Shown here: piece after piece, positions 36,053 through 62,328 of the stretch
Layout: every line of letters begins with the position of its first letter
Numbering within the stretch: position 1 is the first letter of the stretch
NCBI GenBank assembly: GCA_964388955.1
Contig: CAYMCO010000004.1
Coordinates: 2,487-66,486, forward strand
Source: an uncultured Anaerolineaceae bacterium
GTDB lineage: Bacteria > Chloroflexota > Anaerolineae > Anaerolineales > E44-bin32
Length of the DNA: 64,000 nt
Direction of reading: 5' to 3'
Made by a program: the position numbers and the translations under genes
Notes under the pieces: model-generated
The model's database searches: none
Seen by the model: only the letters and a program-made list of their open reading frames with translations
Told to the model about the DNA's origin: nothing

Positions 36053-36829
36053 TCAATCCATCACAAACCCCGCGGAGAAATTGACGGCTTGCCCAGTCTC
36101 ATTGTAGTCGTCTGATGCCATGAAGATCGTCATTGCTGCAATCTGGTCGAGACTAACGAGGCTTCGCAGAGGGGAGGCTGCTATCTCCTCCTCGACGACC
36201 TCGGCGTAAGTCGCTCTTCTCGAAGACGCCGTCTCCTTCCACACCTTTTCCATGCGCGCGCCAGGTACAGAACCGGGGCAGATGGCGTTGACGCGGATAT
36301 TGTGGATGCCGACCTCCATGGCCATCGATTGGGTTAGACCCAGCAACCCGAATTTCGAAGCGCAATACGCGGCTCTCATCGGCATCCCTACCTTACCCGC
36401 CACCGACGAGATATTGATGATGGCGCCTCGCCGTCGAGGGATCATTACCTTGAGCACCTCTTTCGAGCAAAGCATCGCCCCCGTGAGATTGACGGACAGT
36501 GTAGACTCCCAGTCCTCCTTCTGAAGATCGACGACCACCGCCGTTGGCCCGGGAATCCCAGCGTTGTTTATTAGAATATCCACTCGCTTGAAACGGTCGA
36601 GAGTCTCGCAAACCATGCGTTCGACCTGATCCTCAGCCGTGACATCGGCGATGATTGGCAGGGCCACGCCGCCCGTGGATTCGATTTCCTCAACCACACC
36701 CATCACCCGCTCCTTGTTCCGGGCGACAACCACCACGCTCGCCCCTTCTTGTGCGAAGCGCAACGATATGGCCCTCCCAATTCCGCTGTTTCCTCCAGTG
36801 ACGATGGTCACTTTGTCTTCGAACCTCAT
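36053..36829 (-). CDS. short-chain dehydrogenase/reductase (classical SDR)
   Basis: TGGNSGIGRAI (TGxxxGIG), NNAG and S...YCASK (YxxxK). ATG 36829 preferred over GTG 36838. Confidence 0.85.
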   Translation of the reverse strand: MRFEDKVTIVTGGNSGIGRAISLRFAQEGASVVVVARNKERVMGVVEEIESTGGVALPIIADVTAEDQVERMVCETLDRFKRVDILINNAGIPGPTAVVVDLQKEDWESTLSVNLTGAMLCSKEVLKVMIPRRRGAIINISSVAGKVGMPMRAAYCASKFGLLGLTQSMAMEVGIHNIRVNAICPGSVPGARMEKVWKETASSRRATYAEVVEEEIAASPLRSLVSLDQIAAMTIFMASDDYNETGQAVNFSAGFVMD

Positions 36830-37108
36830 TGGCCCCACTCCGCTGGAAAAAGAGCTGGAGAAAGAGGGAGCGATGTCTGCTCCAGCCCCAACGAGACACC
36901 ACCCTGTCTATGGAAACAGATGATCGATGTCCTGGAGGCTATCGCCGTGGGATCCGTGACTGCATCCAGCCGTCGCGCAGACGTGCAATGGGCTCGAGCA
37001 TCGTATGGCCTATGGAACGTCCCCTCACATCGCGCCTTCCACTTGCGAAAACCGAATCTGACCCCACGATTGTCCCGGCCCGCAAGGTGGGTGAGCTCAA
37101 TGCGCATC

Positions 37109-38569
37109 TCAACGCAATTCCTCCTGTGCCTCAGACATTATCCGGTCCATCTCTATCGTCTGGCGGCGATCCAGGATCGGCTCCCGGGGCGCTTTCAACA
37201 GCTCCACGACTTTCTCGTGTGCCATCTGGTCGATGCGTTTTGAGCCTTGCTCTTCCCAAATCTTGAGGGGCGACCGGTTCGCCAACAACGGATCGACGTA
37301 TTCTGACCGGAAGTACTTCAATGTGTGATCGTGAGTCAGGTAGTGCCCCTTGGGGCCTACGTCTGCAATGGCGTCGACCCCTAGCGCAAGGGAATCGATC
37401 TCGAATCCTTTGCCAATCCTCGAGAGCCTTCGGTGCAGCTGCGCATCGAGGACCAACTGCTCCAGACTTGAGGCGGCACTGGAACTGAGGCTTCCGGCGC
37501 CGGCGAGAATATTCGCCCCGCACAGATGGCCGATTTGCGCCATCATGACTTTCTCGATCGCTGCCTGTTCATCGCAAGCGTGGGAGTCACATGCCATCCC
37601 CTTGGCAACGACTGGCAGTCCGTAGTGCTTTCCCAGCTCAATTAGCGCATGAGACATCAGGATGTTTTCCGGTGCGCCGTGGATCGCGTGTCCCGTCTTC
37701 ATGTCGAAGACCATGGGCCGGGGCGAATAGAAGACTCGAGACTGCGGATAGAGCGTGCGACAGATGAGGAGCCCGGCCAGAACCTCGGCATTCGCCGCCA
37801 CCACGGCGCCCGCCACAGTGACAGGGAGGGTGGCGCCGGCGAGCCCGGAGGAGTTGATCTCCACTGGCATGTTGTGCCGGCCGGCCTCCAGCACAACCTT
37901 GAGCTGATCCTCAGAAAAGTGGAGAGGGCTGGATACTGAGGCCAGGATGATCACTCGCGGTCCGGCCCTCTCAGATGCAGCAGACAGCATCCGGCTCAGC
38001 CAGGGCACAGATCTGCTCGACATCGGGTTGATCATTATTGGCTTACGAGTGTTTTCCAGCGCCATGCGGAGCGCCCACAGGTCTTGCATGGGGGCGGGGA
38101 CGTCGGAAGGGCAAAGACATCCCACAATTTCGATTTCATCGAGGCAATCCGCTATGCGCACCCAACCCCTGATATCCTCAATCGTGGACGGTCTCGTCTG
38201 ATCTCCCGGTGCGCAAGAAACCAGGCGAGCTCCCCCCAGGGTGCGGCAACTGATCTGTCCCGAGGAGCCGATATGAACGTCCTGCCCGGCGCCGAGCCCA
38301 CGAAGGACGAAAGGGTCCGGTGGTGATCCCGTAAAATCCATAAGCGTGGAGGTGGGGAAGCACACAGCGTGATTACCCTTGTTGGTGAATCCACCGACGC
38401 TCCCGAGGCGCTGCCGGACTTCCTCATTCTCAACAATCAGACCTACTTCATTGAGAACCTTGAAAGACGCCATCGTGAATTCTTCGACTGTCTCATCGCT
38501 CAACAACGGCTGAAACGTGGGAAGCGCACCAATCGGATGAGTGCTGTTTCGAGACATTTCGAGTTCCAT
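37109..38569 (-). CDS. MttB-superfamily (trimethylamine methyltransferase family) homolog without pyrrolysine codon
   Basis: Full-length family pattern as I recall it: FKVLNEVGLIV, SLEQLVLDAQL and ALGVDAIADVGPKGHYLTHDHT. GGAGG lies ~6 nt upstream of ATG 38569. No in-frame TAG. Confidence 0.78.
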   Translation of the reverse strand: MELEMSRNSTHPIGALPTFQPLLSDETVEEFTMASFKVLNEVGLIVENEEVRQRLGSVGGFTNKGNHAVCFPTSTLMDFTGSPPDPFVLRGLGAGQDVHIGSSGQISCRTLGGARLVSCAPGDQTRPSTIEDIRGWVRIADCLDEIEIVGCLCPSDVPAPMQDLWALRMALENTRKPIMINPMSSRSVPWLSRMLSAASERAGPRVIILASVSSPLHFSEDQLKVVLEAGRHNMPVEINSSGLAGATLPVTVAGAVVAANAEVLAGLLICRTLYPQSRVFYSPRPMVFDMKTGHAIHGAPENILMSHALIELGKHYGLPVVAKGMACDSHACDEQAAIEKVMMAQIGHLCGANILAGAGSLSSSAASSLEQLVLDAQLHRRLSRIGKGFEIDSLALGVDAIADVGPKGHYLTHDHTLKYFRSEYVDPLLANRSPLKIWEEQGSKRIDQMAHEKVVELLKAPREPILDRRQTIEMDRIMSEAQEELR

Positions 38570-38760
38570 CGGGCCTCCACGATATGTGGCTATTCCCACT
38601 CTTACCCAGCAGGAGGATGCCCCTACATATACTCTTCGTCAGGGGGGCATAGTGAGGCACCATGTGGCCTATGCCGAGGACGATCAGCGATGGCCGGCCA
38701 TTCTGTCGTGCTATGCCGGTGCATCGCCCCCGGCTTCCAAGCAGTTAATTGCTTTCGCTC

Positions 38761-40551
38761 TCATAGGGTCGGCGTGCTCTGCAACAACCTGAGTGTGTAT
38801 TGTTGTTTGGGCTCTGTGAAAACGCTTGTAAAATCACCCGACTCCACGACCAGACCGTCCTTCATGACGATTACCCGGTCGGCGATTGAGGATGCCAGCG
38901 CGAGATTGTGAGTTATGAACAGCAGGGTGAGATCGAATTCCCTTTGTAGGCTCCGCAGTAGTTCAATGATGGAGGCTTGGACTGATACGTCCAGTGCCGA
39001 TGTGATCTCGTCGCATATGAGAAGCTTCGGCTCGGCTGTCAGCGCGCGGGCAATGGCTACACGTTGTTTCTCTCCGCCGCTCAGTTGGTCGGGATAGCTG
39101 TCCATAAACCAGGTGGCCATCCTCATCTTGGAAAGAAACTCGGCTGTCTTCTCGCGGGCCGACTTCTTGTCCATGCCGTAGAACAGTTCCAGCGGCCTGC
39201 CGATGATTTGTCTCACCGTTTGTCTTGGGTTGAGCGACCCATCAGGGTTCTGAAAAACGATCTGAATGATGCGCCGGCACCTCTTCGATCGCTGCCCGGC
39301 CTGCAAGGGGAGGTTCTCGCCGAGAAGGTCGATCTGGCCATCAGCCTTCTTGTGCAATCCGGCTAGGCACCGGGCCGTCGTCGTCTTGCCACTCCCCGAT
39401 TCACCGACCAGTGCGAGACACTCACCCCCAAACATGTTAAAGCTGAGGCTCCGAATGACTTGTTGGCGACCGAACCACGCATCGAGATTCCGGACACTCA
39501 ACAGCGGCTTACTTCTATGCGCGGCCAGCGAGAGGGAGTGCCCGGAATCAACTTTGCTTTCCTCTTCGTACAGCCAATTGGCACGATAGCACTTCGATCG
39601 GTGGCCGGGAGCGACTTCGACAGGGGGAGGGAAGGTCTGATAGCATTCGTCAATGGCAAATCTGCACCTCGGGGAGAAGAAGCACCCTCGAGGTCGGTCG
39701 TGCAGGGCGACGGCATGTCCCGGAATTCCTCTGAGAATCCGTCTCGCCGTGATAGAGGGAATAGCTCGAAGTAGCTCTCGGGTGTATGGATGGGAAGGCT
39801 TCTGGAAGAGAGATTCCTCCGAAGCATATTCGACGATGCGTCCTCCGTACATGACCGCAACGTAATCTGCCAGATCGGCGATAACCGCCAAATCATGCGT
39901 CACATAGAGGGCGCTTGCATTGTAAATGCGGCAGAGGGATCGGATTGTGTCGAGAATGTGCGCCTGGGTGGTCACATCCAATCCCGTGGTAGGCTCATCA
40001 AGTACGATGACCTTCGGCCGGCAAGCGAATGCCATGGCGAGCAACACACGCTGCTGCTGTCCTCCGGAAAGTTGGTGTGGATAGCGTCGAAGGAAAGGCG
40101 GTTCGGGCGGCAGCTTCACCTCGGCGAGGACCTCGTGCATTCGCTCTTCGCGTTTGCTCGGCGCAAGATTCCTCAAATGGGAGCTCATTGTCTCCTGGAG
40201 TTGCAGCCCGATCCGCAGAGCGGGATTGAGGGCCATGGAAGGATCCTGCGGCATGTACGAGATGAGCCGGCCCCGGATTTCTCTCAGTTCGCGACGGGAC
40301 AACTGCAAGACTCGTCTCCCGGCGATAATCACTTCGCCTTCGGCAATCCTAGCGCCCTTCCGCGTGTGCCCGAGAAGCGCCATCGCTGCCGTTGTCTTTC
40401 CAGACCCGGACTCACCCACCAATCCCAACACATTCCCTTCAGGAATGTGCATTGAGACACTGTCGATAATGTCAACCCCGGATCCCGACAGCTCGACCCT
40501 CAGGTTCTCGGCTACGACGGTCATTCCCCTGCCACCTGTTGGTCTGGTCAT
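38761..40551 (-). CDS. ABC transporter ATP-binding protein, fused double NBD (DppD/DppF-like)
   Basis: Two Walker A motifs (GESGSGKTT, twice), signatures LSGGQQQRV and LSGGEKQRV, and Walker B VLDEPT and ICDEIT. ATGA overlap with the upstream permease stop. The ORF-track start 40962 is rejected. Confidence 0.88.
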   Translation of the reverse strand: MTRPTGGRGMTVVAENLRVELSGSGVDIIDSVSMHIPEGNVLGLVGESGSGKTTAAMALLGHTRKGARIAEGEVIIAGRRVLQLSRRELREIRGRLISYMPQDPSMALNPALRIGLQLQETMSSHLRNLAPSKREERMHEVLAEVKLPPEPPFLRRYPHQLSGGQQQRVLLAMAFACRPKVIVLDEPTTGLDVTTQAHILDTIRSLCRIYNASALYVTHDLAVIADLADYVAVMYGGRIVEYASEESLFQKPSHPYTRELLRAIPSITARRILRGIPGHAVALHDRPRGCFFSPRCRFAIDECYQTFPPPVEVAPGHRSKCYRANWLYEEESKVDSGHSLSLAAHRSKPLLSVRNLDAWFGRQQVIRSLSFNMFGGECLALVGESGSGKTTTARCLAGLHKKADGQIDLLGENLPLQAGQRSKRCRRIIQIVFQNPDGSLNPRQTVRQIIGRPLELFYGMDKKSAREKTAEFLSKMRMATWFMDSYPDQLSGGEKQRVAIARALTAEPKLLICDEITSALDVSVQASIIELLRSLQREFDLTLLFITHNLALASSIADRVIVMKDGLVVESGDFTSVFTEPKQQYTLRLLQSTPTL

Positions 40552-41447
40552 TCGATTCTCGCCAGTGCGCGTGCAACTCCATCGGTGATCATGTTCGTGC
40601 CGATGGTCAACAGAGCGATCGCCAGGATCGGCCCCGCGATAACAGATGGTTGCACACGGAGGCCAGTTCTGTTCTCGTTGATCATCAGACCCCAATCTGC
40701 GGCAGGAGGCTGCAATCCGAAGCCCAGGAAACTCAGCGATGCGATTATGGCGATGGAGAACGTCAATCGGAGGCCCGCTTCGACCATAAGTGGGCCGGTT
40801 ACATTGGGAAGGATCTCCCTGACCAATATCCAGGTCATTTTCTCCCCGCGCGCTTCGGCCGCCTCCACATAGCTCTGGACGGCCACCCCGAGAGTTGCGG
40901 CTCGAATGACTCGAGCGACCTTGGGAATATGGGTCACCGCAACGGCGAGAACCAGCAGCCACAACTGTGGGCCCAGGGTGGTTATGAAGAGAAGGGTAAA
41001 GACAATAGATGGAAGTGAGAGAACTGTATCCATCAGAAACATCAGCAGATCATCCAGCCAGTTCCTGAAGTAACCCGCGGCAAGGCCCACAGTTGTCCCC
41101 CCCAATACGCCCAAGACTGTGGCCAGAGTCGACAGGCCGAGTATTGACCAGCCGCCCCACAGAAATCGAGACAGCGCATCTCTACCCAGGTAATCTGTGC
41201 CGAGCAGAGAGGTGCTGGAAGGTGAGGTATATGGGCTGTTGACGAATTCAGTCGGTGAGTAGGGCGAAAAGAATGGGCCGAAAACCGCGATGATCACCAG
41301 CGTACCGGTGATGGCGATCCCTACCTGAGTTGAGCGGATGGAAAGAGCCCGCCGCAGCACCGTTTCTTCGCTGCTGGAGGGCGAAGAAGAAAGCGTCTCT
41401 CCAGCCGAGTCCCCTTTCCCTGCTTCTGCCCCAGCAATCATCTGCAA
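40548..41447 (-). CDS. ABC transporter permease (DppC/OppC-like)
   Basis: Six TM helices and the EAA-type loop VEAAEARGEKMTWILVREILPN. Confidence 0.85.
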   Translation of the reverse strand: MQMIAGAEAGKGDSAGETLSSSPSSSEETVLRRALSIRSTQVGIAITGTLVIIAVFGPFFSPYSPTEFVNSPYTSPSSTSLLGTDYLGRDALSRFLWGGWSILGLSTLATVLGVLGGTTVGLAAGYFRNWLDDLLMFLMDTVLSLPSIVFTLLFITTLGPQLWLLVLAVAVTHIPKVARVIRAATLGVAVQSYVEAAEARGEKMTWILVREILPNVTGPLMVEAGLRLTFSIAIIASLSFLGFGLQPPAADWGLMINENRTGLRVQPSVIAGPILAIALLTIGTNMITDGVARALARIE

Positions 41448-42392
41448 CTAGGCCCTCAGCTTTGGTGTGAGAAGTATGGCTGAAATATCGGCAAGCAGAT
41501 TCATGAATATGTACACAAGCGCGATAAACAGCGACAGTGCCTGCACCAGCGGGACATCCCGCAGTGCCACTGCGTCGATTAGCGCCTGGCCGACACCGGG
41601 ATAGCGGAATACATATTCAACCACGACGATGCCTCCCGCCATCCATGCGATATTGAGCGCCACAACCTGTATGGTGGGGACAATGGCATTTGGCAGTGCA
41701 TGTCGAAGGTAGACGGTTGGGTCCTGCAGGCCTTTCAACCAGGCCATCTGTATGTATTCACTATCCAGCACTTCCAGCATGGAGGCGCGAAGCATCCGCC
41801 CAATATATGGGGAGGTTGCCAGCACCAGAGTGGCAATTGGAAGCACATAAATCCCTACCCGAGCCCACCCCGTGTCGCCCGGCAGCAGCAGGGATGTCGG
41901 CGGAAACAATCGGAATATGACTGTAGCGAAAACGAAAATCAAGATCATGCCAAGTACAAAGACGGGTAGCGCCACCAGGGTCAGCGTGGCTGTGCTTACG
42001 GCATGATCCAAGAGCCGACCGCGCCAGACTGCGCTGAGGATCCCCAGCGCGATGCCAAGAGGGATTGCGACTATGGATGCGAAAGTGAGCAAGATCAATG
42101 AATTGGAGATGCGCGATCCCAGAACTTCTGCGACAGGCTTGCCGGAAGCCAGTGAAACTCCCAGATCCCCAGATAACAACGATGTGACCCACTTCTGGTA
42201 TTGTACGGGGGGCGGGTCATTCAGGTTGAGCCGGTCACGCAGTATTTCCAATCTCTCCGGCGTGGCGTCGCGGCCCAAAATGGCCTGTGCCGCGTCGCCT
42301 GGCAGGATTTGCGTGGCCGAGAATACCACGATCGATAACAGGATGAGGGTACCAAGTGCCCGGATGATCCTTTTGGCCAGTAGTTCTAACAT
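41448..42392 (-). CDS. ABC transporter permease (DppB/OppB-like)
   Basis: Six TM helices and the loop YIQMAWLKGLQDPTVYLRHALPNA. Its stop abuts the downstream permease start. Confidence 0.85.
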   Translation of the reverse strand: MLELLAKRIIRALGTLILLSIVVFSATQILPGDAAQAILGRDATPERLEILRDRLNLNDPPPVQYQKWVTSLLSGDLGVSLASGKPVAEVLGSRISNSLILLTFASIVAIPLGIALGILSAVWRGRLLDHAVSTATLTLVALPVFVLGMILIFVFATVIFRLFPPTSLLLPGDTGWARVGIYVLPIATLVLATSPYIGRMLRASMLEVLDSEYIQMAWLKGLQDPTVYLRHALPNAIVPTIQVVALNIAWMAGGIVVVEYVFRYPGVGQALIDAVALRDVPLVQALSLFIALVYIFMNLLADISAILLTPKLRA

Positions 42393-42575
42393 CCAGCTCC
42401 ATTAGTGAGTCGGCTTCTCAGCTCGATCAGGCCGACGAAAGGCGTGACATTCGCATGATGTCTGCATACACTAGCGGCATAGGACTCAATATTGTGCCCC
42501 ATCCAGAGTATTCTAATCCGATTGGCCACGGAAGGGCAGCTATCCAGCTGCCCTTCCGTCCGATCCTTCGCGGCA

Positions 42576-44180
42576 CTAGACGAACCGAGCCTCGCGAAAT
42601 CGATAGGATGTCAGGCTGATTCCCGATTTGTCTGGAATGAAACCCTCCAGGTTGGAAGAATAGGCATCGACGTTGTTCTTGAAGCCCCAGATGATGTACC
42701 CGCCGCTCTCATAGAGTATTTTCTGCGCTTCGTGCAAGGGGTCACAGCGCTTGGACCTGTCCACCGTGCTTCGTGCATCTTCGAGCAGGCCATTGAAAGT
42801 GGGGTCATCGAAATGGGTCTCGTTGAACGGAGCACCGGTCACCATGCACTGGAAAGACTGTGGAATGATGTTCCGCGTAAACCAGAAGCTGGTGGAAAAG
42901 GCATATTTCAAGTAGTAGTCGCTCCAGAATTCACTCGAAGGCACCTTTCTGAGGACCACATTCAGGCCGGCGCCCTTTGCCTGTTCGGCAAACACCTCAC
43001 AGGCCTCGACCATACCACCCGAAGCCGGGGAGGTCACCAGGGTCACCTCTGAAACGCCCGCAGATTTCAAGAGTGATTTGGCCTCATTGAGATCTTGCCC
43101 ACGTTGTGGCAGGTCGGAAGCGTAGCAGGGGTCCCAGGGGGAATAGAGGTCATTCCCGATCCATCCCTGGCCGGACAGCGCCTGGTCAATCATCTGTTGC
43201 CGGTCAACGATCAAGCGGCATGCCTGACGGACCCGGACATCATCAAATGGCTCCATATCCACGGCCATGAGGATGGGAACCCAGCCCCCGCCTTTGGATA
43301 CCAGCACCTCGAGAGACGAGTCCTGCTCAGTTGCTGCTATTTCTCCAAAGGGAAGCGAATTGATGGCCTGGACTTGGCCGCCGACAAGCGCGTTGACCCG
43401 TGCGGTATCGTCCTGGAAGCCAATGATGACGACCTCGTCGACATATGGCTGGCCGTCTCTCCAGTAGTTTTCGTGCCGCGGAAATACACTCTGCTGCCCA
43501 GGTGTAAAGCTGCTGTACTTGAACGGGCCCGTGCCAACGGGGGACGATGGATCATATCCCTCGGGCACTATGACGTTGTGGCGCTGAGCCAATTGGTCAT
43601 CGAACACGGCGGAGGGTTCGTCGAGAGCAAACTTGACCGTCCGGTCATCGACTTTGGTAATGCCCTCCGGACTCAGATTGCTCAGGATCTTGGCTCCCGA
43701 CGTTGGGTCGTCCGGATCGATAATCCTTCGGAATGACCAGACCACGTCGTCGGCTGTCAGGATCTTCCCATTGTGGAATTCGATGCCTTCTTTGAGCCGG
43801 ACGACCCATTCATCTGCCGAATCATTGGGTGTCAATTCCTCGGCGAGGACATTCTCGATCTGGTAATCGGTATCGTAAGCGACGAGGCCCTCGTAGAGCT
43901 GCTTGTTCCGGGCGATATCGATCTCGGAAGTGGCTCTGTGAGCATCGAGAGTGTCCTTTTCCGAACCGCCCGAAATGCCTACCAGCAGCCTCCCGCCGCG
44001 GCTGGGTTCGGTTGCTGCTGGCGCCGAGGTCGGCCCTGCCGCCGGTTGACCCCCACAGGCGGCGAGCAACGAGGCTGCGGTGGGCGCCAATCCCAACGCA
44101 CCAGCGATTTTGAAGAACTCCCGACGACTCACCTTCCCCTGTTCGAGGTCTCTTCGAAGATTGCCCACTTGGTCTTTCAT
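42576..44180 (-). CDS. ABC transporter substrate-binding lipoprotein, SBP family 5 (peptide/opine/nickel type), Tat-exported
   Basis: Twin-arginine leader SRREFFK plus lipobox LLAAC. About 500-aa family-5 SBP body. Confidence 0.85.
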   Translation of the reverse strand: MKDQVGNLRRDLEQGKVSRREFFKIAGALGLAPTAASLLAACGGQPAAGPTSAPAATEPSRGGRLLVGISGGSEKDTLDAHRATSEIDIARNKQLYEGLVAYDTDYQIENVLAEELTPNDSADEWVVRLKEGIEFHNGKILTADDVVWSFRRIIDPDDPTSGAKILSNLSPEGITKVDDRTVKFALDEPSAVFDDQLAQRHNVIVPEGYDPSSPVGTGPFKYSSFTPGQQSVFPRHENYWRDGQPYVDEVVIIGFQDDTARVNALVGGQVQAINSLPFGEIAATEQDSSLEVLVSKGGGWVPILMAVDMEPFDDVRVRQACRLIVDRQQMIDQALSGQGWIGNDLYSPWDPCYASDLPQRGQDLNEAKSLLKSAGVSEVTLVTSPASGGMVEACEVFAEQAKGAGLNVVLRKVPSSEFWSDYYLKYAFSTSFWFTRNIIPQSFQCMVTGAPFNETHFDDPTFNGLLEDARSTVDRSKRCDPLHEAQKILYESGGYIIWGFKNNVDAYSSNLEGFIPDKSGISLTSYRFREARFV

Positions 44181-44227
44181 GTCGCCCTCCTCCCAGGCAA
44201 CTATCTGCGCCCCCCTTCAATCTCTTT

Positions 44228-44242
44228 CGATAATCGATTATA
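44228..44242. promoter_or_regulatory. candidate operator 1 (CGATAATCGATTATA, core palindrome ATAATCGATTAT)
   Basis: Exact 15-nt copy of the site at 44378-44392. Lies ~50 nt upstream of the SBP start codon (minus strand). Confidence 0.45.
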
Positions 44243-44340
44243 GATTATTCTATACAAACGTCAACGTGGAGTCAAACATAAATTCCCGACAAGTTGCTCT
44301 CAGGAGAAGGTCTTTCGCATCCCAGCGATGCCAAAGTAAC

Positions 44341-44369: not shown

Positions 44370-44377
44370 GATGAAAA

Positions 44378-44392: not shown

Positions 44393-44398
44393 GGAGCT

Positions 44399-47507: not shown

Positions 47508-48803
47508 GTGAGCCGGCCTAGCGGGGACGGGTCCGGATATCCCCTCGGGAATGTCCGCATCTTGGACTGCACTCACTCTTGGGCAGGCCCCTTGGCGACG
47601 CAGATGCTCGCTTTCTTCGGAGCCCAAGTGATCCATATCGAGGCGCCTCACCGGCCGGATCGGTGGCGCGGCCCGGTCGATCCGGCAGCAGACGACCGAT
47701 TCACTTACCGTTATCCGGGCGCTTCACCTGGCGAAAGGCCGTTCGACCGCAACGCGCTCTTCAATGAGAAGAACACGAACAAGCTGGGTTTGACACTCAA
47801 TCTACTTCATCCCAAGGGCCGTGAAATCTTTGGCGCGCTGGTTCGAATAAGCGATGCAGTTGTCACAAACTTCAGTGCCCCGGCAATCCGGAAATTACAT
47901 TTGGACCATGACAGCCTGGCCGAGGTGAACCCCGAGATCGTCACCCTCTCGCTCACTGGAATGGGAGAGACCGGCCCGGAAAGAGATTATGTGGCTTGGG
48001 GAGTGACCATAGAGGCCTTGAGTGGGCTGTCAAGCATGAAAGGGTACAAGGACGGGCCTCCACTGCTCTCAAACATGGCCTATGGGGATCCGGTTGGGGG
48101 GATCTTTGGGGCGGTGGCCCTGATCACGGCAATTTGGGAAAGCCGGAAGACCGGGAGAGGCCAGCACATCGACTTGTCTCTGCTCGAATGCTCAACAACG
48201 CTGCTGCTCGACATGATCGCGGACCACTCCCTTTCGGGTTCAATCCCAAAGAGGAAAGGAAACCGGCACGAGAGCTATGCACCGAGAGGGTGCTATCGGT
48301 GCAGAGGAGAGGATAAGTGGCTCGCGATCGCAGTCACCAGCGACGCTGAATGGCGCGCATTGCAGCTGGCCATGGGGGAACCGCAATGGGCCAAGAGTGA
48401 ACGGTTCTCTACCTCAGTCGGACGAGTCAAATATCAGGATGAGATAGACAAGAACCTCGAAGAGTGGACATGTGACTTCGAACCGGATGAGCTAATGAAG
48501 GCTCTCCAGGATGCCGGCGTACCGGCGGGGTCCGTGCTCAGCAACCGGGAACTGCTGGATAATGAACAACTGAGCTCGAGGAGATTCTTCACTTTGCTTA
48601 GGCACCCTCAGGCTGGAGAGAATCCGTATCCCCGGATGCCAATCCTCTTGTCACGCACTCCAGGAGGATTGCGGAGTCCGGCACCAATGTTCGGTGAGCA
48701 CAATCGTTGGATTGTCTGTGATCTGCTTGGCTATTCCGAACAGGAATATGCCTCACTCGTGGAAGAGCAGGTCATAGGCAGTAGGCCGCTGCAAAAGGAA
48801 TAA
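47508..48803 (+). CDS. family III CoA-transferase (CaiB/BaiF-type), copy 2
   Basis: LGNVRILDCTHSWAGPLATQMLAFFGAQVIHIE pattern. The GTG start directly follows the copy 1 stop. Confidence 0.85.
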   Translation: MSRPSGDGSGYPLGNVRILDCTHSWAGPLATQMLAFFGAQVIHIEAPHRPDRWRGPVDPAADDRFTYRYPGASPGERPFDRNALFNEKNTNKLGLTLNLLHPKGREIFGALVRISDAVVTNFSAPAIRKLHLDHDSLAEVNPEIVTLSLTGMGETGPERDYVAWGVTIEALSGLSSMKGYKDGPPLLSNMAYGDPVGGIFGAVALITAIWESRKTGRGQHIDLSLLECSTTLLLDMIADHSLSGSIPKRKGNRHESYAPRGCYRCRGEDKWLAIAVTSDAEWRALQLAMGEPQWAKSERFSTSVGRVKYQDEIDKNLEEWTCDFEPDELMKALQDAGVPAGSVLSNRELLDNEQLSSRRFFTLLRHPQAGENPYPRMPILLSRTPGGLRSPAPMFGEHNRWIVCDLLGYSEQEYASLVEEQVIGSRPLQKE

Positions 48804-48893
48804 CCTTCGGAAGTTGGTACGGCGCGGCGCTTGGAGGGCATCGATCCGGATGGCTGAAAATACAAACAGAGGACAAATCGCGAGGGCGTGAGC

Positions 48894-49568
48894 ATGGCCA
48901 ACATAGATGAGGAAGGAGTGTCCACGATTGTGCGCGCCTTCCAGGATACAGCATTTGAGGAGATCCCCGCTCTGGTCAGCAAGAGTATTGATTCTGGAGG
49001 AAGCGCGACGAGCATACTCGAAGACGGACTCACCAAAGGCCTGCGGGAAATCGGGGATCGGTTCAGCCGCGGTGAACTATACCTTCCGGAAATGATGATG
49101 GCTGCAGACGCATGGAAGAGGGGAGTGGCAATACTCGATCCATTGCTGGCATCAAGCGGATACCAGCAGAAGCCGATGACGCGAGTAGTAATCGGGACTG
49201 TGAAGGGGGACATTCACTCTCTCGGCAGACAAATAGTGACCACACTACTGAGGACCGCCGGCTGCACGGTGATCGACATTGGCGAAGATGCCCCCGCCTC
49301 GAGATTCGTTCAGGAGGCAGAAGATCAATCCGCGGATATCATCGCGGCCTCCGCACTGATGACCACCACAATGCCACAACAGCGCGAAATAATGGAGCAC
49401 CTCAGGGCGAGAGGCCGGCGTCAGGATTTCTTTGTCATAGTGGGTGGGGGGTGCACTACACAGGAATGGGCTGATGAAATTGGGGCGGACGGGTACGGTG
49501 AAACGGCGGCCGACGCCGTCAGCCTGATGCATGCGTTCGTCAAAGAAGGGAAGGGGGAAGCCCGGTGA
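48894..49568 (+). CDS. corrinoid (cobalamin-binding) protein, MtmC/MttC-like
   Basis: N-terminal helical cap domain plus a B12-binding Rossmann domain with GTVKGDIHSLGRQIV (DxHxxG), SALMTTT and VIVGGG. Confidence 0.85.
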   Translation: MANIDEEGVSTIVRAFQDTAFEEIPALVSKSIDSGGSATSILEDGLTKGLREIGDRFSRGELYLPEMMMAADAWKRGVAILDPLLASSGYQQKPMTRVVIGTVKGDIHSLGRQIVTTLLRTAGCTVIDIGEDAPASRFVQEAEDQSADIIAASALMTTTMPQQREIMEHLRARGRRQDFFVIVGGGCTTQEWADEIGADGYGETAADAVSLMHAFVKEGKGEAR

Positions 49569-50953
49569 TTTCATTTCAGGAGGTCGTCCGAAGGGCGCAT
49601 ACCGGCCCCATCACATCCGAGAGGGAATTTGAGCTTGAACTCTTCATCCCAACATCACGGCGCCTGGCTGAAAGGTTTGGAATAGTCTTTGACCCCGAAA
49701 CGCCTGTGCCTGACGACGACCATCTAGCCGACAGGGTTTGGCAGGCGGGCGTCGAGTTCTTTTCAGAGATTGGGGTCTTTTGCCCGGACACTGAGCGGAG
49801 GATCCTTTTCTCACGTGAGGAAATCGAACGGCTCTTGCATGACCCACCTTCGGAAGTATGGTTCGGGGGTGGAACGGACCGTCGCCCGTTTCCCAGGCGC
49901 ATTCCCGAGAGCGAGACCCGCCCGTGGTGTTCGGTTGGCGCAGCTGGCTGTCCCGTATCCAGCGAAACAATCCTAAAGAATCTAGTCCGTCATTACGCCC
50001 TTAATCCGTATTGCGATTCGGTGACCACGCCTAGCTTGGCGCTCCTGGACGGTTTCCCAATCGTAGCCGGAAGTCCTCTTGAGGTCGAGGGTGCCATCCG
50101 CAGCGTGATGATATCGCGTGAAGGGTTGCGACAAGCGGGGCGCCCCGATCTCGCGATTGTAAATGCTGTGGCGACCGCTACGCATGCGGTGGGCCACATC
50201 GCAGGGGCGGCCCATGGAATACGCACGACGGATGCGTTGGAGATCGGGGCGCACCATGAGATGAGGGTGGATTATGACTCTTTGAACAAGGTTTCATATG
50301 CCATCAGCAAGGGTCATCAAATCTGGGCGGAAAATGGGGTCGTTCTCGGTGGAATTGCAGGCGGCCCAGCCACAACGGCCATTGTCACCGCCGCGTACAA
50401 CCTCTTGGATATGCTTGTGCTGAGAGGCTCGCTCCAACACCCATTCCCGATCCATGTCAATCTGAGGACAACGACATCAAGGGATACTCTCTGGGTTCGC
50501 AGCATTTCCAATCAGGCGATATCGAGAAATAGCTGGCTGCCAATCGCCAACCTGGGATATGTCGGCGCTGGCCCCGCAACTCAAATGGCCTTCTTGGAGA
50601 CTGCTGCATGGGTGATCGCGTCCGTCGCGAGTGGAGGTTCAATAGAAGCGGAGGGGATTGCGAAGAACGCGCACACGGATCATACCGGCCCTCTGGAACC
50701 TTACTTTGCATGCGAGGTCGCGCATGCGGTCTCCGGCTGGGGGAGAAGCCGGGCCAATGAGATAGTGAAATCCCTCCTTGAAAAGTACGAAGCCGGCCTT
50801 GATGACCCGCCCCAAGGGACAAGAATCCAGGAATGTATGGATATCGGGACAGGGGAAATCGAAGATGGTTATCGTCGAACATACCTTGAGGCGCGCGACA
50901 AGATCGCCAAAATGTGTGGGCTGCAATTCAAATGGGCTTCAATCTATGACTGA
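49565..50953 (+). CDS. MtmB-family (monomethylamine methyltransferase) homolog without pyrrolysine codon
   Basis: 462 aa, against 458 aa for MtmB. FFSEIGVFCPDTERRILFSREEIERL, AGRPDLAIVNAV and C-terminal QECMDIGTGEIEDGYRRTYLEARDKIAKMCGLQF parallel M. barkeri MtmB segments as I recall them. GTGA overlap with the corrinoid protein stop. No in-frame TAG. Confidence 0.7.
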   Translation: MISFQEVVRRAHTGPITSEREFELELFIPTSRRLAERFGIVFDPETPVPDDDHLADRVWQAGVEFFSEIGVFCPDTERRILFSREEIERLLHDPPSEVWFGGGTDRRPFPRRIPESETRPWCSVGAAGCPVSSETILKNLVRHYALNPYCDSVTTPSLALLDGFPIVAGSPLEVEGAIRSVMISREGLRQAGRPDLAIVNAVATATHAVGHIAGAAHGIRTTDALEIGAHHEMRVDYDSLNKVSYAISKGHQIWAENGVVLGGIAGGPATTAIVTAAYNLLDMLVLRGSLQHPFPIHVNLRTTTSRDTLWVRSISNQAISRNSWLPIANLGYVGAGPATQMAFLETAAWVIASVASGGSIEAEGIAKNAHTDHTGPLEPYFACEVAHAVSGWGRSRANEIVKSLLEKYEAGLDDPPQGTRIQECMDIGTGEIEDGYRRTYLEARDKIAKMCGLQFKWASIYD

Positions 50954-51105: not shown

Positions 51106-52989
51106 ATGGCATACGGTTATCAGGGCTGCATCCTTCGTGTCGATCTTTCTGCTCGTACGACGAGGGTAGAACGGCCAGATGACGCGTTTTATCGGGAGTA
51201 TATGGGGGGAAGTGCTCTTGGCCTCTGCTACCTTCTGCAAGATTCCTCGGCATGGGTCGACCCATTCGATCCCGCCAACACCTTGGTATTGGCGCTGAGT
51301 GTTCTGACAGGAGCACCCGCCCCGGGGCTGAGCCGGATAACAGCCGTAGCCAAATCCCCCCTCACAGGGGCCATAGGAGATTCGCAGGCAGGGGGTTTCT
51401 TTCCGGCCCATTTGAAGTTCGCGGGATTTGACGCCATCGTCATTGAAGGCAGAGCGGAACGCCCCGTCTACCTATACCTCCACGATGGTCAGGCAGAACT
51501 GTTGCCGGCTGCCCATTTATGGCGGAAACCAACGGATCAGGTGGAAGTGATGATCCAAGAGGAATTGGGGAGCAGGAAGGTCCATGTGCTTCAGTGCGGC
51601 CCCGCCGGGGAGCGATTGGTTCGTTTCGCGGCGTTGATTAACAGGTGTAACCGCGCCAACGGTCGAACCGGCATGGGTGCAGTCTTCGGGAGCAAAAGAC
51701 TGAAGGCGATTGTCGTTTCCGGAAATCGCAAGCCAGGTCTAGCAAATCGGAAAAGACTGCTGGAGTTGGCAAGATGGGGCTCTGACAACTTCGAGTCCTC
51801 CAACATTGTTGGGCTGGGCAAATATGGGACTGCACACATCATGCATTATCAAAACTCAGCCGGTGGCCAGGTAACTCACAATTGGGAAAGCGGTGTCTTC
51901 GATGGCGCAGATTCCCTTGACGGCCGAACAATGGCTGACACGATTCTCAAGGCACGGGACACGTGCTATGCATGTCCCGTCCGCTGCAAGCGAATTGTCA
52001 AAGTGTCCAACGAATCCTGGCAAGTCGATCCGAAATTCGGGGGGCCAGAGTACGAGACGTTATCAGCGTTCGGATCTTACTGCGCAGTGGATGACCTAGC
52101 TGCCGTTTCAGCGGCAAATCAATTGTGCAACCAGTACGGGATGGACACGATATCATGCGGGGCCACGATCTCATGGGCAATGGATTGTTTTGCCCGGGGG
52201 ATACTCGGTGTTAACGACACGGGAGGGCTTGAACTGAAGTTCGGTGATGCAGAAACAATGGTCAAGGTTGTTGAGATGATAGCCAAGCGCGAGGGGTTCG
52301 GGGATTTGCTGGCGGAGGGATCGGCTCGCGCTGCGGCCACGATTGGCCGCGGCTCCGAGCAACTCGTGGTCGCTGTCAAGAATCAGGAAATCCCCGCACA
52401 CATGCCTCATCTCAAACGTAGTTTGGGGCTCATCTACGCGGTTAATCCCTTCGGACCCGACCACCAATCTTCCGAGCACGATCCCTCTTATAAGCACTAT
52501 ACAGACCGCATGGCTGCTATCGGTCTCACGGATCCGCAACCGCTAGATGCCCTGAACTTGGGAAAGGTGCGGTTCGCACTGATCACTCAACATGTCTACT
52601 CCTGTTTGGATTCCCTGAACGTATGCCAGTTTGTGTTTGGTCCCTCTTGGCAGTTGTATGACATTGGTCAGCTTGCGGATGTCGTACAAGCGGTGGCGGG
52701 GTGGGACGTAACAATCGATGAACTCCTTAAGCTGGGGGAGCGGAGGCTGAACATGATGCGAGTTTTCAATTCTCGAGCGGGATTTTCCCGCCGGGAAGAT
52801 AAGTTGCCGTTGAAGCTGCGCATCCCCTTGCAGGGAGGGAAGACAGAAGGCCTTCACATCACTGAGGAGGAGATCAGCGGGGCAAAAGATATGTACTATG
52901 AGTTGGCTGGATGGGATATTGAATCGGGGAATCCTTCCACCAAGACCCTGGAACGTTTGGGGTTGGGGTGGGCCAGTGATGAGAAATAA
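51106..52989 (+). CDS. aldehyde:ferredoxin oxidoreductase family (tungsto-/molybdopterin AOR)
   Basis: N-terminal GCILRVDLS...YMGGSALG and the [4Fe-4S] ligand region CYACPVRCKR. 627 aa. Confidence 0.88.
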   Translation: MAYGYQGCILRVDLSARTTRVERPDDAFYREYMGGSALGLCYLLQDSSAWVDPFDPANTLVLALSVLTGAPAPGLSRITAVAKSPLTGAIGDSQAGGFFPAHLKFAGFDAIVIEGRAERPVYLYLHDGQAELLPAAHLWRKPTDQVEVMIQEELGSRKVHVLQCGPAGERLVRFAALINRCNRANGRTGMGAVFGSKRLKAIVVSGNRKPGLANRKRLLELARWGSDNFESSNIVGLGKYGTAHIMHYQNSAGGQVTHNWESGVFDGADSLDGRTMADTILKARDTCYACPVRCKRIVKVSNESWQVDPKFGGPEYETLSAFGSYCAVDDLAAVSAANQLCNQYGMDTISCGATISWAMDCFARGILGVNDTGGLELKFGDAETMVKVVEMIAKREGFGDLLAEGSARAAATIGRGSEQLVVAVKNQEIPAHMPHLKRSLGLIYAVNPFGPDHQSSEHDPSYKHYTDRMAAIGLTDPQPLDALNLGKVRFALITQHVYSCLDSLNVCQFVFGPSWQLYDIGQLADVVQAVAGWDVTIDELLKLGERRLNMMRVFNSRAGFSRREDKLPLKLRIPLQGGKTEGLHITEEEISGAKDMYYELAGWDIESGNPSTKTLERLGLGWASDEK

Positions 52990-52997
52990 GCCGCACC

Positions 52998-53026: not shown

Positions 53027-53234
53027 GACCCATGTTTGCGCCTGCCAGATTCTCGTGGCCCCACACGCGCATTTCAATGAAATCAACTCGCGGCTTTCCA
53101 GGATATTGAGTTTACGCAAAGAAAGAGCAGTTTGAAAGCTTCCGAAACCTGAAATCTGAGAGCGAATCGGTGGACGAACCGGAGTAGATATCCCACGGCG
53201 AACCATTGCCCGGATAGGGAGTGAACAATCAGCC

Positions 53235-55712
53235 ATGATAGGGGCAATAGATCGAGATCGACCTGGAGAACCCTTGCCGACCAGCGCTCGGGTTGTTGTT
53301 ATCGGTGGCGGTATCGTAGGATGCAGCGTGGCGTATCATCTGACAAAGCTCGGCTGGGAAGACGTAATCCTATTGGAACGCAAGCAGCTCACTTGTGGAT
53401 CGACATGGCATGCCGCCGGCTTAGTCACACAACTCCGGGCGACCGAGAACATGACAAAGCTAGCGAAATATACCCAAGAGCTATACTCAAACTTGGAAGA
53501 AGAGACTGGCCAGGCGACAGGTTTTGCCCATGTGGGATCAATCAACCTGGCAACCACCCCTGCGCGCCTTGAGGAGTTGCGCCGAGCTTGTTCGATGGCC
53601 CGCTGTTTCGGTGTGGAGGCTGTTGAGATCTCCCCGAAAGAGATTCACGAGAGGTGGCCGTTGGCCTACGCAGGCGACCTATTAGCAGGATTCTACTTCC
53701 CGAAGGATGCGAAAACAAATCCAATCGACACCACACTCGCGCTTGCGAAGGGAGCGAGGAAACGGGGGGCGGAGATCTTCGAGGGGGTAAAGGTGATTGG
53801 GGTCACCACGGAGAATGGCAGAGCGACCGGAGTGGTGACCTCCAAAGGAAGCGTCGCGGCCGAATACGTTGTTAACTGCGCGGGGATGTGGGGCAGAGAA
53901 CTGGGCAACATGGTTGGTGTTAGAGTTCCACTTCAAGCGGCCGAACACTATTATCTGATAACCGAGCCAATTGAGGGCTTGGACCCTCACCTTCCGATTC
54001 TCAAGGATACGGACAGATGTGCCTATTATCGGGAGGAAACCGGTGGATTGATGATAGGGTTCTTCGAGCCAACTGCGGTGCCATGGGCGTGCAGCGGAAT
54101 CCCCGATGACTGTTCATTCACGGAAATCCCACCGGATTGGGATCGGATGATGCCGTACGTCGAGACAGCGATGGAGCGAGTGCCGGCCGCGGCAACGGTG
54201 GGAATAAGAAAGATGCTCAACGGGCCCGAGAGCTTCACCCCCGATGACCGGTATCTTCTGGGCGAGGCACCGGAGTTGAAGAACTACTTCGTGGCAGCAG
54301 GTTTCAATTCACTAGGGATCCTGTCGGCGGGGGGAGCGGGAAAAGTTCTAGCGGAATGGATCATCGATGGTCAACCTCAAATGGACATCTGGGATGTCGA
54401 TATCAGCAGGACCCTCCCATTCCAGAGCAACCCGCGGTTTCTGAGAAACCGCACAGTGGAAATCCTTGGATTCGCCTACGGAAATCATTGGCCGTACCGG
54501 CAATATAACAGTGCAAGGAATGTCAGAAAGTCAATTCTACATGACCGGCTAGCGGAGGCGGGTGCCTGTTTTGGCGAAGCTGCAGGATGGGAGCGAGCCA
54601 ATTGGTATGCGCCTGGCGGGGTTGAACCGAAGTACCAATACTCTTGGAACAGGCAGAACTGGTTCGAGTACAACAAGGAAGAACACACCGCGGCCAGAAA
54701 TCAGGCCGTGCTTCTGGACCAGAGTTCGTTCTCCAAGTTCCTGGTTCAGGGTCGGGATGCCGGCGAGGTGCTTGACCGCATCTGTGCCAACAGCGTTGCA
54801 GTGCGGGTTGGCAAGTGCGTCTATACCCAGTGGTTGAACAGTCGGGGAACGATCGAAGCGGATCTGACCGTGTCTCGATTGGATGAGGGCCGGTACCTGA
54901 TAATCTGCGCGGGGGCCACCCATACCCATGTTCATACCTGGCTGAGGCGGAACATCCCCGCCGAGGCGCACGCATTCATAACAGATGTCACGTCCGCATA
55001 TGCGATGATAAACATCCAAGGTCCGAATTCGCGCGAGCTCCTGCAACGACTTACCAGTGCGGATCTTTCCTCCGAGGCTTTTCCATATTTGACCTGCCGG
55101 ACTATTGATCTTGCATATGCGCTGGTAGAAGCGTTGCGAATTACATATGTCGGAGAGTTGGGATGGGAACTCTATATACCGACGGAATTTGCCCTGTCGG
55201 TCTATGATGCGCTCGTCGATGAAGGAAGAGATCTTGGGTTGAGGCATGCCGGCTATCACACTCTGAATAGTCTCAGAATAGAAAAGGGGTATCGAGACTT
55301 TGGGCATGATATCGGGGCTGATGATACTCCGTTCGAAGCCGGCTTAGGATTTGCGGTGAAGCTCGAGGGGAAGAGGCGTTTCATCGGCAGGGATGCGTTG
55401 CTGCGCCAGAAGGAGAGAGGGAACCTCACGCGACGGTTGGTTCAATTCCTGCTGGAGGATCCCGAGCCCCTCATGTATCATAACGAGCCCATATTCCAAG
55501 AAGGGCAGCTTGTTGGCTACACCACTTCCGCGATGTACGGGCATACTCTTGGGGGCTCCGTGGCTCTTGGCTACATCAATGATCCGGAGGGTGTCACCAA
55601 GGAAAAGATAAACGCAGGCAATTTCGAGATCGAGGTCGCGGGGAGACGGTACCCGGCGGCAGCCTCGTTGAGACCCATGTTCGACCCGGATAATAGGAAG
55701 ATACTTGCATAA
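53235..55712 (+). CDS. dimethylglycine/sarcosine-dehydrogenase-like flavoenzyme (FAD oxidoreductase + GcvT folate-binding domain)
   Basis: VVIGGGIVGCSVAYHL dinucleotide fold, GSTWHAAGL (covalent-FAD His context), and a C-terminal aminomethyltransferase-like region (YVGELGWELY, GYTTSAMYGHTLG). 825 aa. Confidence 0.85.
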   Translation: MIGAIDRDRPGEPLPTSARVVVIGGGIVGCSVAYHLTKLGWEDVILLERKQLTCGSTWHAAGLVTQLRATENMTKLAKYTQELYSNLEEETGQATGFAHVGSINLATTPARLEELRRACSMARCFGVEAVEISPKEIHERWPLAYAGDLLAGFYFPKDAKTNPIDTTLALAKGARKRGAEIFEGVKVIGVTTENGRATGVVTSKGSVAAEYVVNCAGMWGRELGNMVGVRVPLQAAEHYYLITEPIEGLDPHLPILKDTDRCAYYREETGGLMIGFFEPTAVPWACSGIPDDCSFTEIPPDWDRMMPYVETAMERVPAAATVGIRKMLNGPESFTPDDRYLLGEAPELKNYFVAAGFNSLGILSAGGAGKVLAEWIIDGQPQMDIWDVDISRTLPFQSNPRFLRNRTVEILGFAYGNHWPYRQYNSARNVRKSILHDRLAEAGACFGEAAGWERANWYAPGGVEPKYQYSWNRQNWFEYNKEEHTAARNQAVLLDQSSFSKFLVQGRDAGEVLDRICANSVAVRVGKCVYTQWLNSRGTIEADLTVSRLDEGRYLIICAGATHTHVHTWLRRNIPAEAHAFITDVTSAYAMINIQGPNSRELLQRLTSADLSSEAFPYLTCRTIDLAYALVEALRITYVGELGWELYIPTEFALSVYDALVDEGRDLGLRHAGYHTLNSLRIEKGYRDFGHDIGADDTPFEAGLGFAVKLEGKRRFIGRDALLRQKERGNLTRRLVQFLLEDPEPLMYHNEPIFQEGQLVGYTTSAMYGHTLGGSVALGYINDPEGVTKEKINAGNFEIEVAGRRYPAAASLRPMFDPDNRKILA

Positions 55713-62327: not shown

Positions 62328-62328
62328 G

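Follow-up and report, generated by a model that had tools for sequence, protein, structure and literature searches.

What does a sediment member of the Chloroflexota take up and break down with the 14 genes at positions 36053–55712 of the DNA shown here, and do these genes form one pathway? The stretch, 64,000 nucleotides of contig CAYMCO010000004.1 from an uncultured Anaerolineaceae bacterium, is called the window throughout. The genes lie in two arms that diverge from a 218-bp spacer (Table 1). The minus arm encodes an ATP-binding cassette (ABC) importer with its solute-binding lipoprotein, a homologue of the methyltransferase MttB and a short-chain dehydrogenase/reductase (SDR). The plus arm encodes a GntR/FCD regulator, a crotonase, two CoA-transferases, a corrinoid protein, a homologue of the methyltransferase MtmB, an aldehyde:ferredoxin oxidoreductase (AOR) and a flavoenzyme of the dimethylglycine dehydrogenase (DMGDH) type. 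The initial annotation, made from the sequence alone, took the cluster for a self-contained pathway of import, activation and stepwise N-demethylation of a carnitine- or betaine-like or other N-methylated compound. An open reading frame (ORF) listing together with Pfam and NCBIfam profile scans of the window proteins placed each of the 14 genes where it had been annotated and in the family proposed for it (14/14). The locus does look coherent as a cluster for an N-methyl compound: it holds two non-pyrrolysine methyltransferase homologues, one corrinoid protein, a DMGDH-type enzyme and a duplicated operator, and its G+C content at third codon positions (GC3) is uniform.

A proposed catabolic unit for an imported N-methylated compound

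We put the chances at even that the cluster was acquired as one unit and serves the catabolism of an N-methylated compound taken up from outside; this compound is probably neither glycine betaine nor carnitine itself. In this model, a Tat-exported family-5 lipoprotein and its ABC importer would take up the N-methylated organic compound, while a GntR/FCD repressor would occupy a duplicated palindrome, ATAATCGATTAT, at both divergent promoters and be released by the substrate or a product. The orphan MttB homologue and the MtmB homologue, both non-pyrrolysine and the latter translationally coupled to the corrinoid gene, would transfer N-methyl groups onto the single corrinoid protein, and the DMGDH-type flavoenzyme would remove a further N-methyl group oxidatively onto tetrahydrofolate. 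A heteromeric CoA-transferase resembling BbsEF would activate the carbon skeleton, most likely with succinyl-CoA as donor, and the crotonase, SDR and AOR would then process it. The methyl-corrinoid:folate methyltransferase and the reductive activator would be supplied from elsewhere in the genome.

Two methyltransferase homologues without pyrrolysine

The reading frames of both methyltransferase homologues are continuous, with zero in-frame stop codons, which confirms the lack of a TAG codon stated in the initial annotation, and each carries an ordinary residue at the pyrrolysine position. In the MttB homologue it is Ala336 that aligns with Pyl334 of 7xcl. In the MtmB homologue the pyrrolysine position (Pyl202 of 1l2q, Methanosarcina barkeri MtmB) aligns to Asn200, which is invariant in an alignment of 112 homologues reaching down to ~48% identity. 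At least 98% conservation is seen at 71 positions of this alignment; E226 and E256 are invariant in the clade and align with E229 and E259 of MtmB, which we take to be the acidic residues adjoining pyrrolysine.

The closest relatives of the MtmB homologue are 67% identical over their full length and include a contig from the Loki's Castle deep-sea anoxic marine sediment assembly SDBU01, an origin that fits the presence of an oxygen-sensitive AOR in the cluster. Named relatives of the MtmB and CoA-transferase proteins belong to Chloroflexota, Dehalococcoidia and Anaerolineae, and a scan of representative genomes with the MtmB homologue yielded only Anaerolineae and Chloroflexota loci of 33–38% identity. 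The corrinoid gene overlaps the MtmB-homologue gene by 4 bases. Wherever the sequence ahead of a related MtmB gene is long enough to tell, down to 33% identity, a corrinoid gene comes immediately before it. The recurrent neighbours of this pair are genes for GntR/FCD regulators, SDRs, DMGDH-like enzymes, MttB homologues, glycine-cleavage P protein and serine-cycle-type enzymes, as well as enolase, glycerate kinase (DUF4147/MOFRL) and 2-hydroxyacid dehydrogenases. One layout, kept in loci L007, L009 and L012, comprises a branched-chain-type ABC importer, an M28 peptidase, an SDR, a class-V aminotransferase, an MttB homologue and two glycine-cleavage P subunits; L009 alone adds a DMGDH-like enzyme, 41% identical to the flavoenzyme of the cluster. 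These neighbours point to glycine, serine and one-carbon metabolism, and the context echoes the induction of the serine cycle when Ruegeria grows on glycine betaine (PMC12478193).

Further arrangements occur among the relatives. In L010, L011, L015, L016 and JGI contig Bm7f-p49 (59–66% identity) the pair is followed by enolase, glycerate kinase (DUF4147/MOFRL) and a GntR/FCD regulator, to which L010, L015 and L016 add an FAA-hydrolase and a 2-hydroxyacid or Ldh_2 dehydrogenase. The MtmB/corrinoid pair has a conserved link to glycerate/phosphoenolpyruvate metabolism in those five loci. A second MtmB paralogue stands in tandem in L014 and in Bm7f-p49.

The MttB homologue is an orphan: among 5.8 billion proteins its nearest relative, a strain variant aside, is 33% identical. 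That relative (L087, L088) is accompanied by its own corrinoid protein, a TRAP transporter (DctPQM) and a glutamine-synthetase-family gene. The cluster protein scores roughly equally against pyrrolysine MttB (154 bits) and MtgB structures (146 bits). In MtgB, glycine betaine is bound by Y97, R312, H348 and F356, and R312 is reported to be conserved in all characterised quaternary-amine MttBs, that is, MtgB, MtcB, MtpB and MtyB (PMC13080624). In our alignment to MtgB, the two cation-π residues Y97 and F356 are replaced by L121 and S374, the carboxylate salt-bridge residue R312 by V331 and the hydrogen-bonding H348 by A366; the equivalents of R312, H348 and F356 lie in a confidently aligned block. 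Since 0/4 betaine-binding residues are conserved, the MttB homologue is probably not a glycine-betaine methyltransferase, and it may recognise no free carboxylate in the known way.

These residues bear directly on a choline/glycine-betaine route, in which choline would be converted to betaine aldehyde (SDR), glycine betaine (AOR), dimethylglycine (MttB homologue), sarcosine (DMGDH type) and finally glycine, with the MtmB homologue acting as a 'monomethylglycine' methyltransferase. Such a route would agree with the flavoenzyme matching DMGDH best (534 bits to mammalian DMGDH 5l46), with the glycine-cleavage P protein, class-V aminotransferase, glycerate kinase and enolase genes beside MtmB/corrinoid relatives, and with the substrates, tetramethylammonium and choline, of MtqB, the one non-pyrrolysine MtmB characterised so far (PMC13044021). 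However, we regard it as distinctly improbable: besides the replaced MtgB residues, the importer belongs to a peptide/opine type, the route leaves both CoA-transferases and the crotonase without a function, and efficient demethylation of a secondary amine is not known from any non-pyrrolysine enzyme, MtyB showing <1% activity (PMC8604678).

All other non-pyrrolysine MtmBs, most bacterial ones included, have been left without a function (PMC13044021). A quite unlikely but specific proposal for the Chloroflexota clade is that its members need no pyrrolysine to transfer methyl groups from a secondary or tertiary N-methyl amine, for instance sarcosine or a different N-methyl amino acid. In combination with the orphan MttB homologue, such an enzyme would let a betaine-type compound lose further methyl groups after the first, step by step and without the need for oxygen. 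We know of no characterised non-pyrrolysine system that efficiently demethylates betaine-type compounds past that first group.

A duplicated operator in the divergent control region

Of all promoter-like sites in the 20-kb region, the two that match best both fall in the divergent spacer, one per strand, with 11/12 and 10/12 matches. The spacer also holds a 16-nt operator, CGATAATCGATTATAG, in two identical copies; the core of this operator is a perfect palindrome. The copy at 44228–44243 overlaps the -10 hexamer of the minus-arm promoter, and that at 44378–44393 lies between the plus promoter and the start codon of the regulator gene. Allowing ≤3 mismatches, four operator matches were obtained (two sites on both strands, the core being palindromic) versus 0.16 expected. 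No further copy occurs elsewhere in the 64-kb window, and the palindrome is absent from 79 other loci examined, which indicates that relatives use other operators.

A second strain, represented by locus L086 from a sister sequencing run, covers positions 35958–45242 at 98.3% DNA identity. While 19 of the 218 spacer bases differ in this strain, both operator copies are unchanged, as are 3/4 promoter hexamers, the single change falling in the minus-arm -35. The ratio pN/pS between the strains is 0.08–0.37 across the seven covered genes (0.36 for the SDR, 0.32 for the MttB homologue, 0.08 for the solute-binding protein), from which we conclude that these genes are maintained by selection. Judging from the sequence, the GntR/FCD protein is likely to bind the palindromic operator, and the arrangement of sites supports autoregulation of the regulator together with control of the transporter/MttB/SDR arm by this one protein. 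We regard the cluster as probably co-regulated: the transporter arm and the regulator gene share the duplicated operator, although this does not prove control of the plus-arm enzymes.

The CoA-ester module, the aldehyde oxidoreductase and the flavoenzyme

BbsEF is the succinyl-CoA:(R)-benzylsuccinate CoA-transferase of anaerobic toluene degradation, where it works with the crotonase BbsH and the SDR BbsCD. The closest solved relative of transferase 2 is BbsF, at 245.7 bits versus 166 for the next structure, and transferase 1 matches both BbsE and BbsF at ~110 bits. As with BbsEF, the two are encoded by adjacent paralogous family-III genes, and genes for a crotonase and an SDR belong to the cluster as well; we think that the two transferases probably form a heteromeric enzyme of this kind. 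Unlike the BbsEF system, the cluster is devoid of an acyl-CoA dehydrogenase (BbsG), a thiolase (BbsAB) and a benzylsuccinate synthase context, and the similarity is moderate. The best solved relative of the crotonase is the 3-hydroxypropionyl-CoA dehydratase 5zai (142.4 bits). The nearest NCBIfam models of the SDR, 3-hydroxybutyrate dehydrogenase and FabG, all fall below their cut-offs. The AOR is a typical family member (400 bits to Pyrococcus furiosus AOR 1aor) and was found in 0/86 other loci collected.

An abutting transferase pair with a nearby crotonase, sometimes with an SDR, recurs at 30–48% identity in many metagenome loci, examples being L023, L030, L035, L041, L047, L059 and L084; the order in L023 is FMN-dependent dehydrogenase, transferase pair, SDR, crotonase and NMO-family gene. 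A metagenome scan with transferase 2 returned best relatives of ≤45% identity, none of them with methyltransferases. Closer relatives of transferase 2 (59–64% identical) stand on short contigs or in a decayed context beside urease genes. In L081–L083 (about 61–64% identical) a 573-aa extended transferase-2 gene follows a 118-aa transferase-1 fragment next to a urease operon, in what looks like a decayed pair.

The two transferases had been labelled CaiB/BaiF-type, which is correct at the family level (CoA_transf_3) but does not extend to CaiB itself: against the CaiB model NF002914 they score 81.6 and 104.3 bits versus a cut-off of 413, and other transferase models score higher. This matters for a carnitine, crotonobetaine or γ-butyrobetaine pathway, in which CaiB- and CaiD-like enzymes would act on betainyl-CoA esters and demethylation would be MtcB- or MtyB-like. 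What speaks for it are the family-level matches to CoA_transf_3, ECH_1 and MTTB, the structural-genomics crotonases labelled 'carnitinyl-CoA dehydratase' among the matches (109–118 bits), an SDR resembling 3-hydroxybutyrate dehydrogenase that could oxidise a 3-hydroxy acid such as carnitine, and the occurrence of a family-III CoA-transferase with a crotonase in the E. coli Cai pathway (CaiTABCDE). However, apart from the low CaiB scores and the affinity to BbsF and 3-hydroxypropionyl-CoA dehydratase, the MttB homologue does not have the carboxylate-binding Arg of MtgB, MtcB, MtpB and MtyB (PMC13080624), and the 14 genes include neither CaiA, CaiC or CaiT nor an uptake system of the BCCT or OpuAC type. 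The carnitine reading put forward at first is thus not borne out, and we consider it highly improbable. Neither of the specific-substrate readings, choline and carnitine, agrees with the active-site residues of the MttB homologue, with the type of importer or with the model scores.

A route for dimethylsulfoniopropionate (DMSP) or acrylate was considered as well, because transferases of SAR202 Chloroflexota resemble DddD (PMC5395668) and the crotonase resembles 3-hydroxypropionyl-CoA dehydratase. We rejected this candidate, as no specific evidence supports it; our literature search found no account of corrinoid MttB-type DMSP demethylation.

Probable acquisition beside a tRNA gene

The cluster was probably acquired horizontally beside a tRNA-Asn gene and an integrase, the latter lying 52 bp from the tRNA gene. 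GC3 is 0.60–0.69 in all 14 genes of both arms, whereas 12 core genes on the left range from 0.69 to 0.80 and a gene pair at 61134–62949 has a value of 0.78. Being uniform inside the cluster and higher outside, it indicates that the two arms share one compositional history, unlike both flanks. The low GC3 and the position between the tRNA-Asn/integrase and IS21 debris are what make acquisition probable; the IS21 remnants form the right edge of the low-GC3 block, and the C-terminal remnant of IstA scores 45.7 bits with Mu-transpos_C_2.

The first 32 kb of the window are unremarkable chromosomal DNA, encoding an EF-G-like protein, PBP1, FabI, a Na+/H+ exchanger and others. The exchanger (8413–10299) is fused with a C-terminal cyclic-di-AMP receptor domain (CdAMP_rec), a DUF4388 protein is directly followed by a small Ras-like GTPase (ATP_bind_1/Ras) at 28985–30365, and ORFs of 879, 420 and 355 aa (17185–19824, 20667–21929 and 31594–32661) have no Pfam match at the thresholds applied. 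To the right, an ORF beside the IS21 debris gives only weak helix-turn-helix matches, and the ORFs at the right end of the window (63080–63966) have no family match; both 56314–58330, where the former lies, and 63080–63966 look like mobile-element decay. A pseudogene of an FAD_binding_2 flavoprotein, broken into three frames (59968–60333, 60363–60794 and 60883–61065), lies between the insertion sequence debris and a gene for a protein of the uroporphyrinogen decarboxylase (URO-D) superfamily.

One pathway or a mosaic of modules

Do the 14 genes belong together functionally? Instead of one pathway, the locus could be a mosaic of two or three independent modules side by side: (a) importer, MttB homologue and SDR; (b) the CoA-transferase pair and crotonase; and (c) the corrinoid protein and MtmB homologue, with AOR and DMGDH. 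Module (b) recurs alone in the loci listed above and module (c) in L007–L016, and because the two recur separately and never together we regard a mosaic origin as possible, if rather unlikely. Chloroflexota of this type carry many paralogues, with large expansions of CaiB/BaiF transferases and SDRs in SAR202 (PMC5395668). The operator is confined to the divergent spacer, a hairpin stands ahead of the crotonase gene, and the AOR and DMGDH genes come after gaps of 153 and 246 bp. Set against this are the GC3, uniform over 14 genes and distinct from both flanks; the eight co-directional genes of the plus arm, with 85 bp separating the transferase and corrinoid genes; and locus L009, in which a DMGDH-like gene, an SDR gene and an MttB gene accompany the MtmB/corrinoid pair.

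Several results weigh against the single catabolic unit that we favour. The full gene combination was found in no other locus collected in our neighbourhood searches. In the loci collected, MtmB relatives at 59–67% identity never have transferases, a crotonase or an AOR nearby, and the recurrent transferase-pair loci have other importers and never methyltransferases nearby. Family scans detected neither an acyl-CoA dehydrogenase nor a thiolase in the cluster, leaving a β-oxidation-like reading incomplete. The usual ligands of family-5 binding proteins are peptides, opines or metals rather than betaines. Between the regulator and crotonase genes lies a 283-bp gap with the terminator-like hairpin, and the whole-window search placed no operator there; that the operator controls the plus-arm enzymes is for these reasons unproven. 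A search of the 64-kb window for an att site, in the form of a repeated tRNA-Asn 3' end with its flanking sequence, gave nothing of ≥13 nt, which leaves the right boundary of the island undefined; its end may lie beyond base 64000 or be degraded. Finally, a pterin-binding methyltransferase, a RamA-type activator and a DUF1638 protein are missing from the scanned ORFs of the window.

The first two of these missing parts (MtqA-like and RamA-type) had been missed already in the initial annotation, and with the second methyltransferase and the activator absent from the window the cluster is not self-contained. Such an absence is not unusual, since separate encoding is known from other systems: in Eubacterium limosum the corrinoid protein, second methyltransferase and activator are encoded apart from the many MttB paralogues that share them (PMC8604678), and in Ruegeria the components are scattered around the genome (PMC12478193).

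A second corrinoid protein next to the cluster

The pair at 61134–62949, initially suggested as a possible partner, consists of a second corrinoid protein and a divergent 397-aa protein of the URO-D superfamily, the genes of which overlap. The URO-D fold is that of the MtaA/MtbA-type methyltransferases. As a single sequence, the 397-aa protein has zero Pfam and zero PDB matches, and its single-sequence AlphaFold2 model averages a pLDDT of 41.7. When 1.84 billion representative proteins were searched in full with HMMER, only 37 relatives came up, ~6 of them full length; the resulting family profile matches uroporphyrinogen decarboxylase structures (E = 3e-7), and 7/9 aligned sequences match PF01208. 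None of the eight invariant positions of the family alignment is His or Cys, and there is no obvious zinc site. By family membership, the pair is probably another corrinoid methyltransferase system, and the 397-aa protein may be an undescribed type of corrinoid methyltransferase. As a partner of the cluster it is less convincing: its core-like GC3, the intervening IS21 debris and pseudogene and the lack of an operator copy indicate that it probably lies outside the acquired block. It could nevertheless serve the cluster in trans.

Gene assignments and start sites

Motifs in the translations agree with the assignments. The solute-binding protein begins with a Tat motif (SRREFFK) followed by a lipobox (LLAAC), and the corrinoid protein has DIHSLG at residue 108; the Tat-lipoprotein and DxHxxG corrinoid assignments proposed earlier are both confirmed. 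The AOR contains the [4Fe-4S] cysteines as CYACPVRC (CxxCxxxC) plus a later Cys, and the DMGDH-like protein contains GSTWHAAG, presumably the covalent-FAD histidine motif.

Some starts needed revision. The ATPase ORF at 38761–40962 (733 aa) is over-extended: gene calls on sister contigs give 587–596 aa (596 aa in the second strain), which places the start near 40551. The true start of the MttB homologue is probably 10 codons downstream, at 38569, giving 486 aa. The 825-aa start of the DMGDH-type enzyme is correct, since the 794-aa automatic call would remove the GxGxxG motif. A 93-aa ORF called between the MttB and SDR genes in the second strain looks non-coding and was not counted.

Table 1. 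Features of the cluster and its surroundings, in order along the window.
Feature	Position	Strand	Evidence and remarks
tRNA-Asn (GTT)	32724-32798	+	ARAGORN; Rfam tRNA 69.3 bits; probable integration site, left edge
Tyrosine recombinase, phage-type integrase	32850-34019	-	Phage_integrase 93.4 bits and Phage_int_SAM_3
SDR	36053-36838	-	adh_short 211 bits; last gene of minus arm
MttB-superfamily homologue	37109-38599	-	PF06253 258.8 bits, profile positions 23-489 of 500
Fused two-domain ABC ATPase, Dpp/Opp D+F type	38761-40551	-	two ABC_tran stretches and oligo_HPY
Two ABC permeases	40548-41447 and 41448-42392	-	BPD_transp_1 with OppC_N or BPD_transp_1_N
Tat-exported lipoprotein, family-5 solute-binding protein	42576-44180	-	SBP_bac_5 247.4 bits
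Divergent control region	44181-44398	none	two promoter-like sites, two operator copies
GntR/FCD regulator	44399-45124	+	GntR 61.7 bits, FCD 79.4 bits
Hairpin, possible terminator or attenuator	45330-45354	+	perfect 10-bp stem, 5-nt loop, T-rich tail
Crotonase-family enoyl-CoA hydratase	45407-46183	+	ECH_1 149.5 bits
Two abutting family-III CoA-transferases (1 and 2)	46284-47507 and 47508-48803	+	CoA_transf_3 261.9 and 329 bits
Corrinoid protein	48888-49568	+	B12-binding_2 and B12-binding
MtmB-family homologue	49565-50953	+	PF05369 263.9 bits, profile positions 5-448 of 450
Aldehyde:ferredoxin oxidoreductase, tungsten/molybdenum pterin type	51106-52989	+	AFOR_N 229 bits, AFOR_C 385.3 bits
Dimethylglycine/sarcosine-dehydrogenase-type flavoenzyme, folate-binding domain	53235-55712	+	DAO, FAO_M, GCV_T and GCV_T_C
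IS21 remnants	56314-57452	-	truncated IstB (IstB_IS21 98.5 bits, profile positions 174-236 only) and IstA C-terminal part
URO-D-superfamily protein, 397 aa	61134-62327	+	family profile
Second corrinoid protein	62290-62949	+	B12-binding 97.1 bits, DVHDIG motif; overlaps URO-D-like gene

Relation to known systems and significance

How does the cluster compare with characterised demethylation systems? Aerobic marine bacteria such as Ruegeria pomeroyi have been shown to combine corrinoid-dependent MtgBCD with flavin/folate demethylation of dimethylglycine and sarcosine, the genes being often co-located and sometimes scattered (PMC12478193). The initial view that the cluster mixes enzyme types normally split between anaerobic and aerobic routes, with no characterised pathway to match, is out of date, as this combination was documented in 2025. 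Like the MtgBCD route, the cluster has a PF06253 methyltransferase, a separate corrinoid protein and a co-located DMGDH-type enzyme, and its relatives link to glycine/serine metabolism. Unlike that route, it adds an MtmB-family enzyme, a CoA-ester module and an AOR, its host is a sediment member of the Chloroflexota, its window contains no pterin-binding MtgD, RamA or DUF1638 protein, and its MttB homologue does not have the betaine-binding residues.

The full-length, pyrrolysine-free MtmB-family protein beside a corrinoid gene recalls MtqB/MtqC of Methanococcoides methylutens Q3c (PMC13044021), but the cluster has no coenzyme-M methyltransferase. In anaerobes, MtgB, MtcB, MtpB and MtyB share MtqC, MtqA and RamQ (PMC8604678, PMC13080624); the cluster resembles these in its non-pyrrolysine MttB fold, its probably shared corrinoid protein and its partners encoded elsewhere, and differs in that its MttB homologue is ≤33% identical to the relatives found and has Val in place of the conserved carboxylate-binding Arg. 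The combination of corrinoid and flavin/folate N-demethylation is thus already known, as are paralogue-rich CoA-transferase clusters in Chloroflexota. New are the particular gene set, the orphan MttB homologue, the defined pair of operator and regulator, and an unassigned Chloroflexota clade of MtmB homologues that is well conserved and carries Asn where pyrrolysine would stand.

Marine sediments hold major pools of carbon, nitrogen and methane precursors in the form of methylated amines and betaines, and substrates are known for only one non-pyrrolysine MtmB and a handful of non-pyrrolysine MttBs. Should the locus be a mosaic, it would be one more paralogue-rich catabolic island as known from Chloroflexota. 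With its importer, regulator and operator, corrinoid protein and two methyltransferases, the cluster is a compact test bed that could help to assign a substrate to the widespread Chloroflexota MtmB clade and to the orphan MttB homologue, and could reveal whether anaerobes go beyond a single demethylation of betaines.

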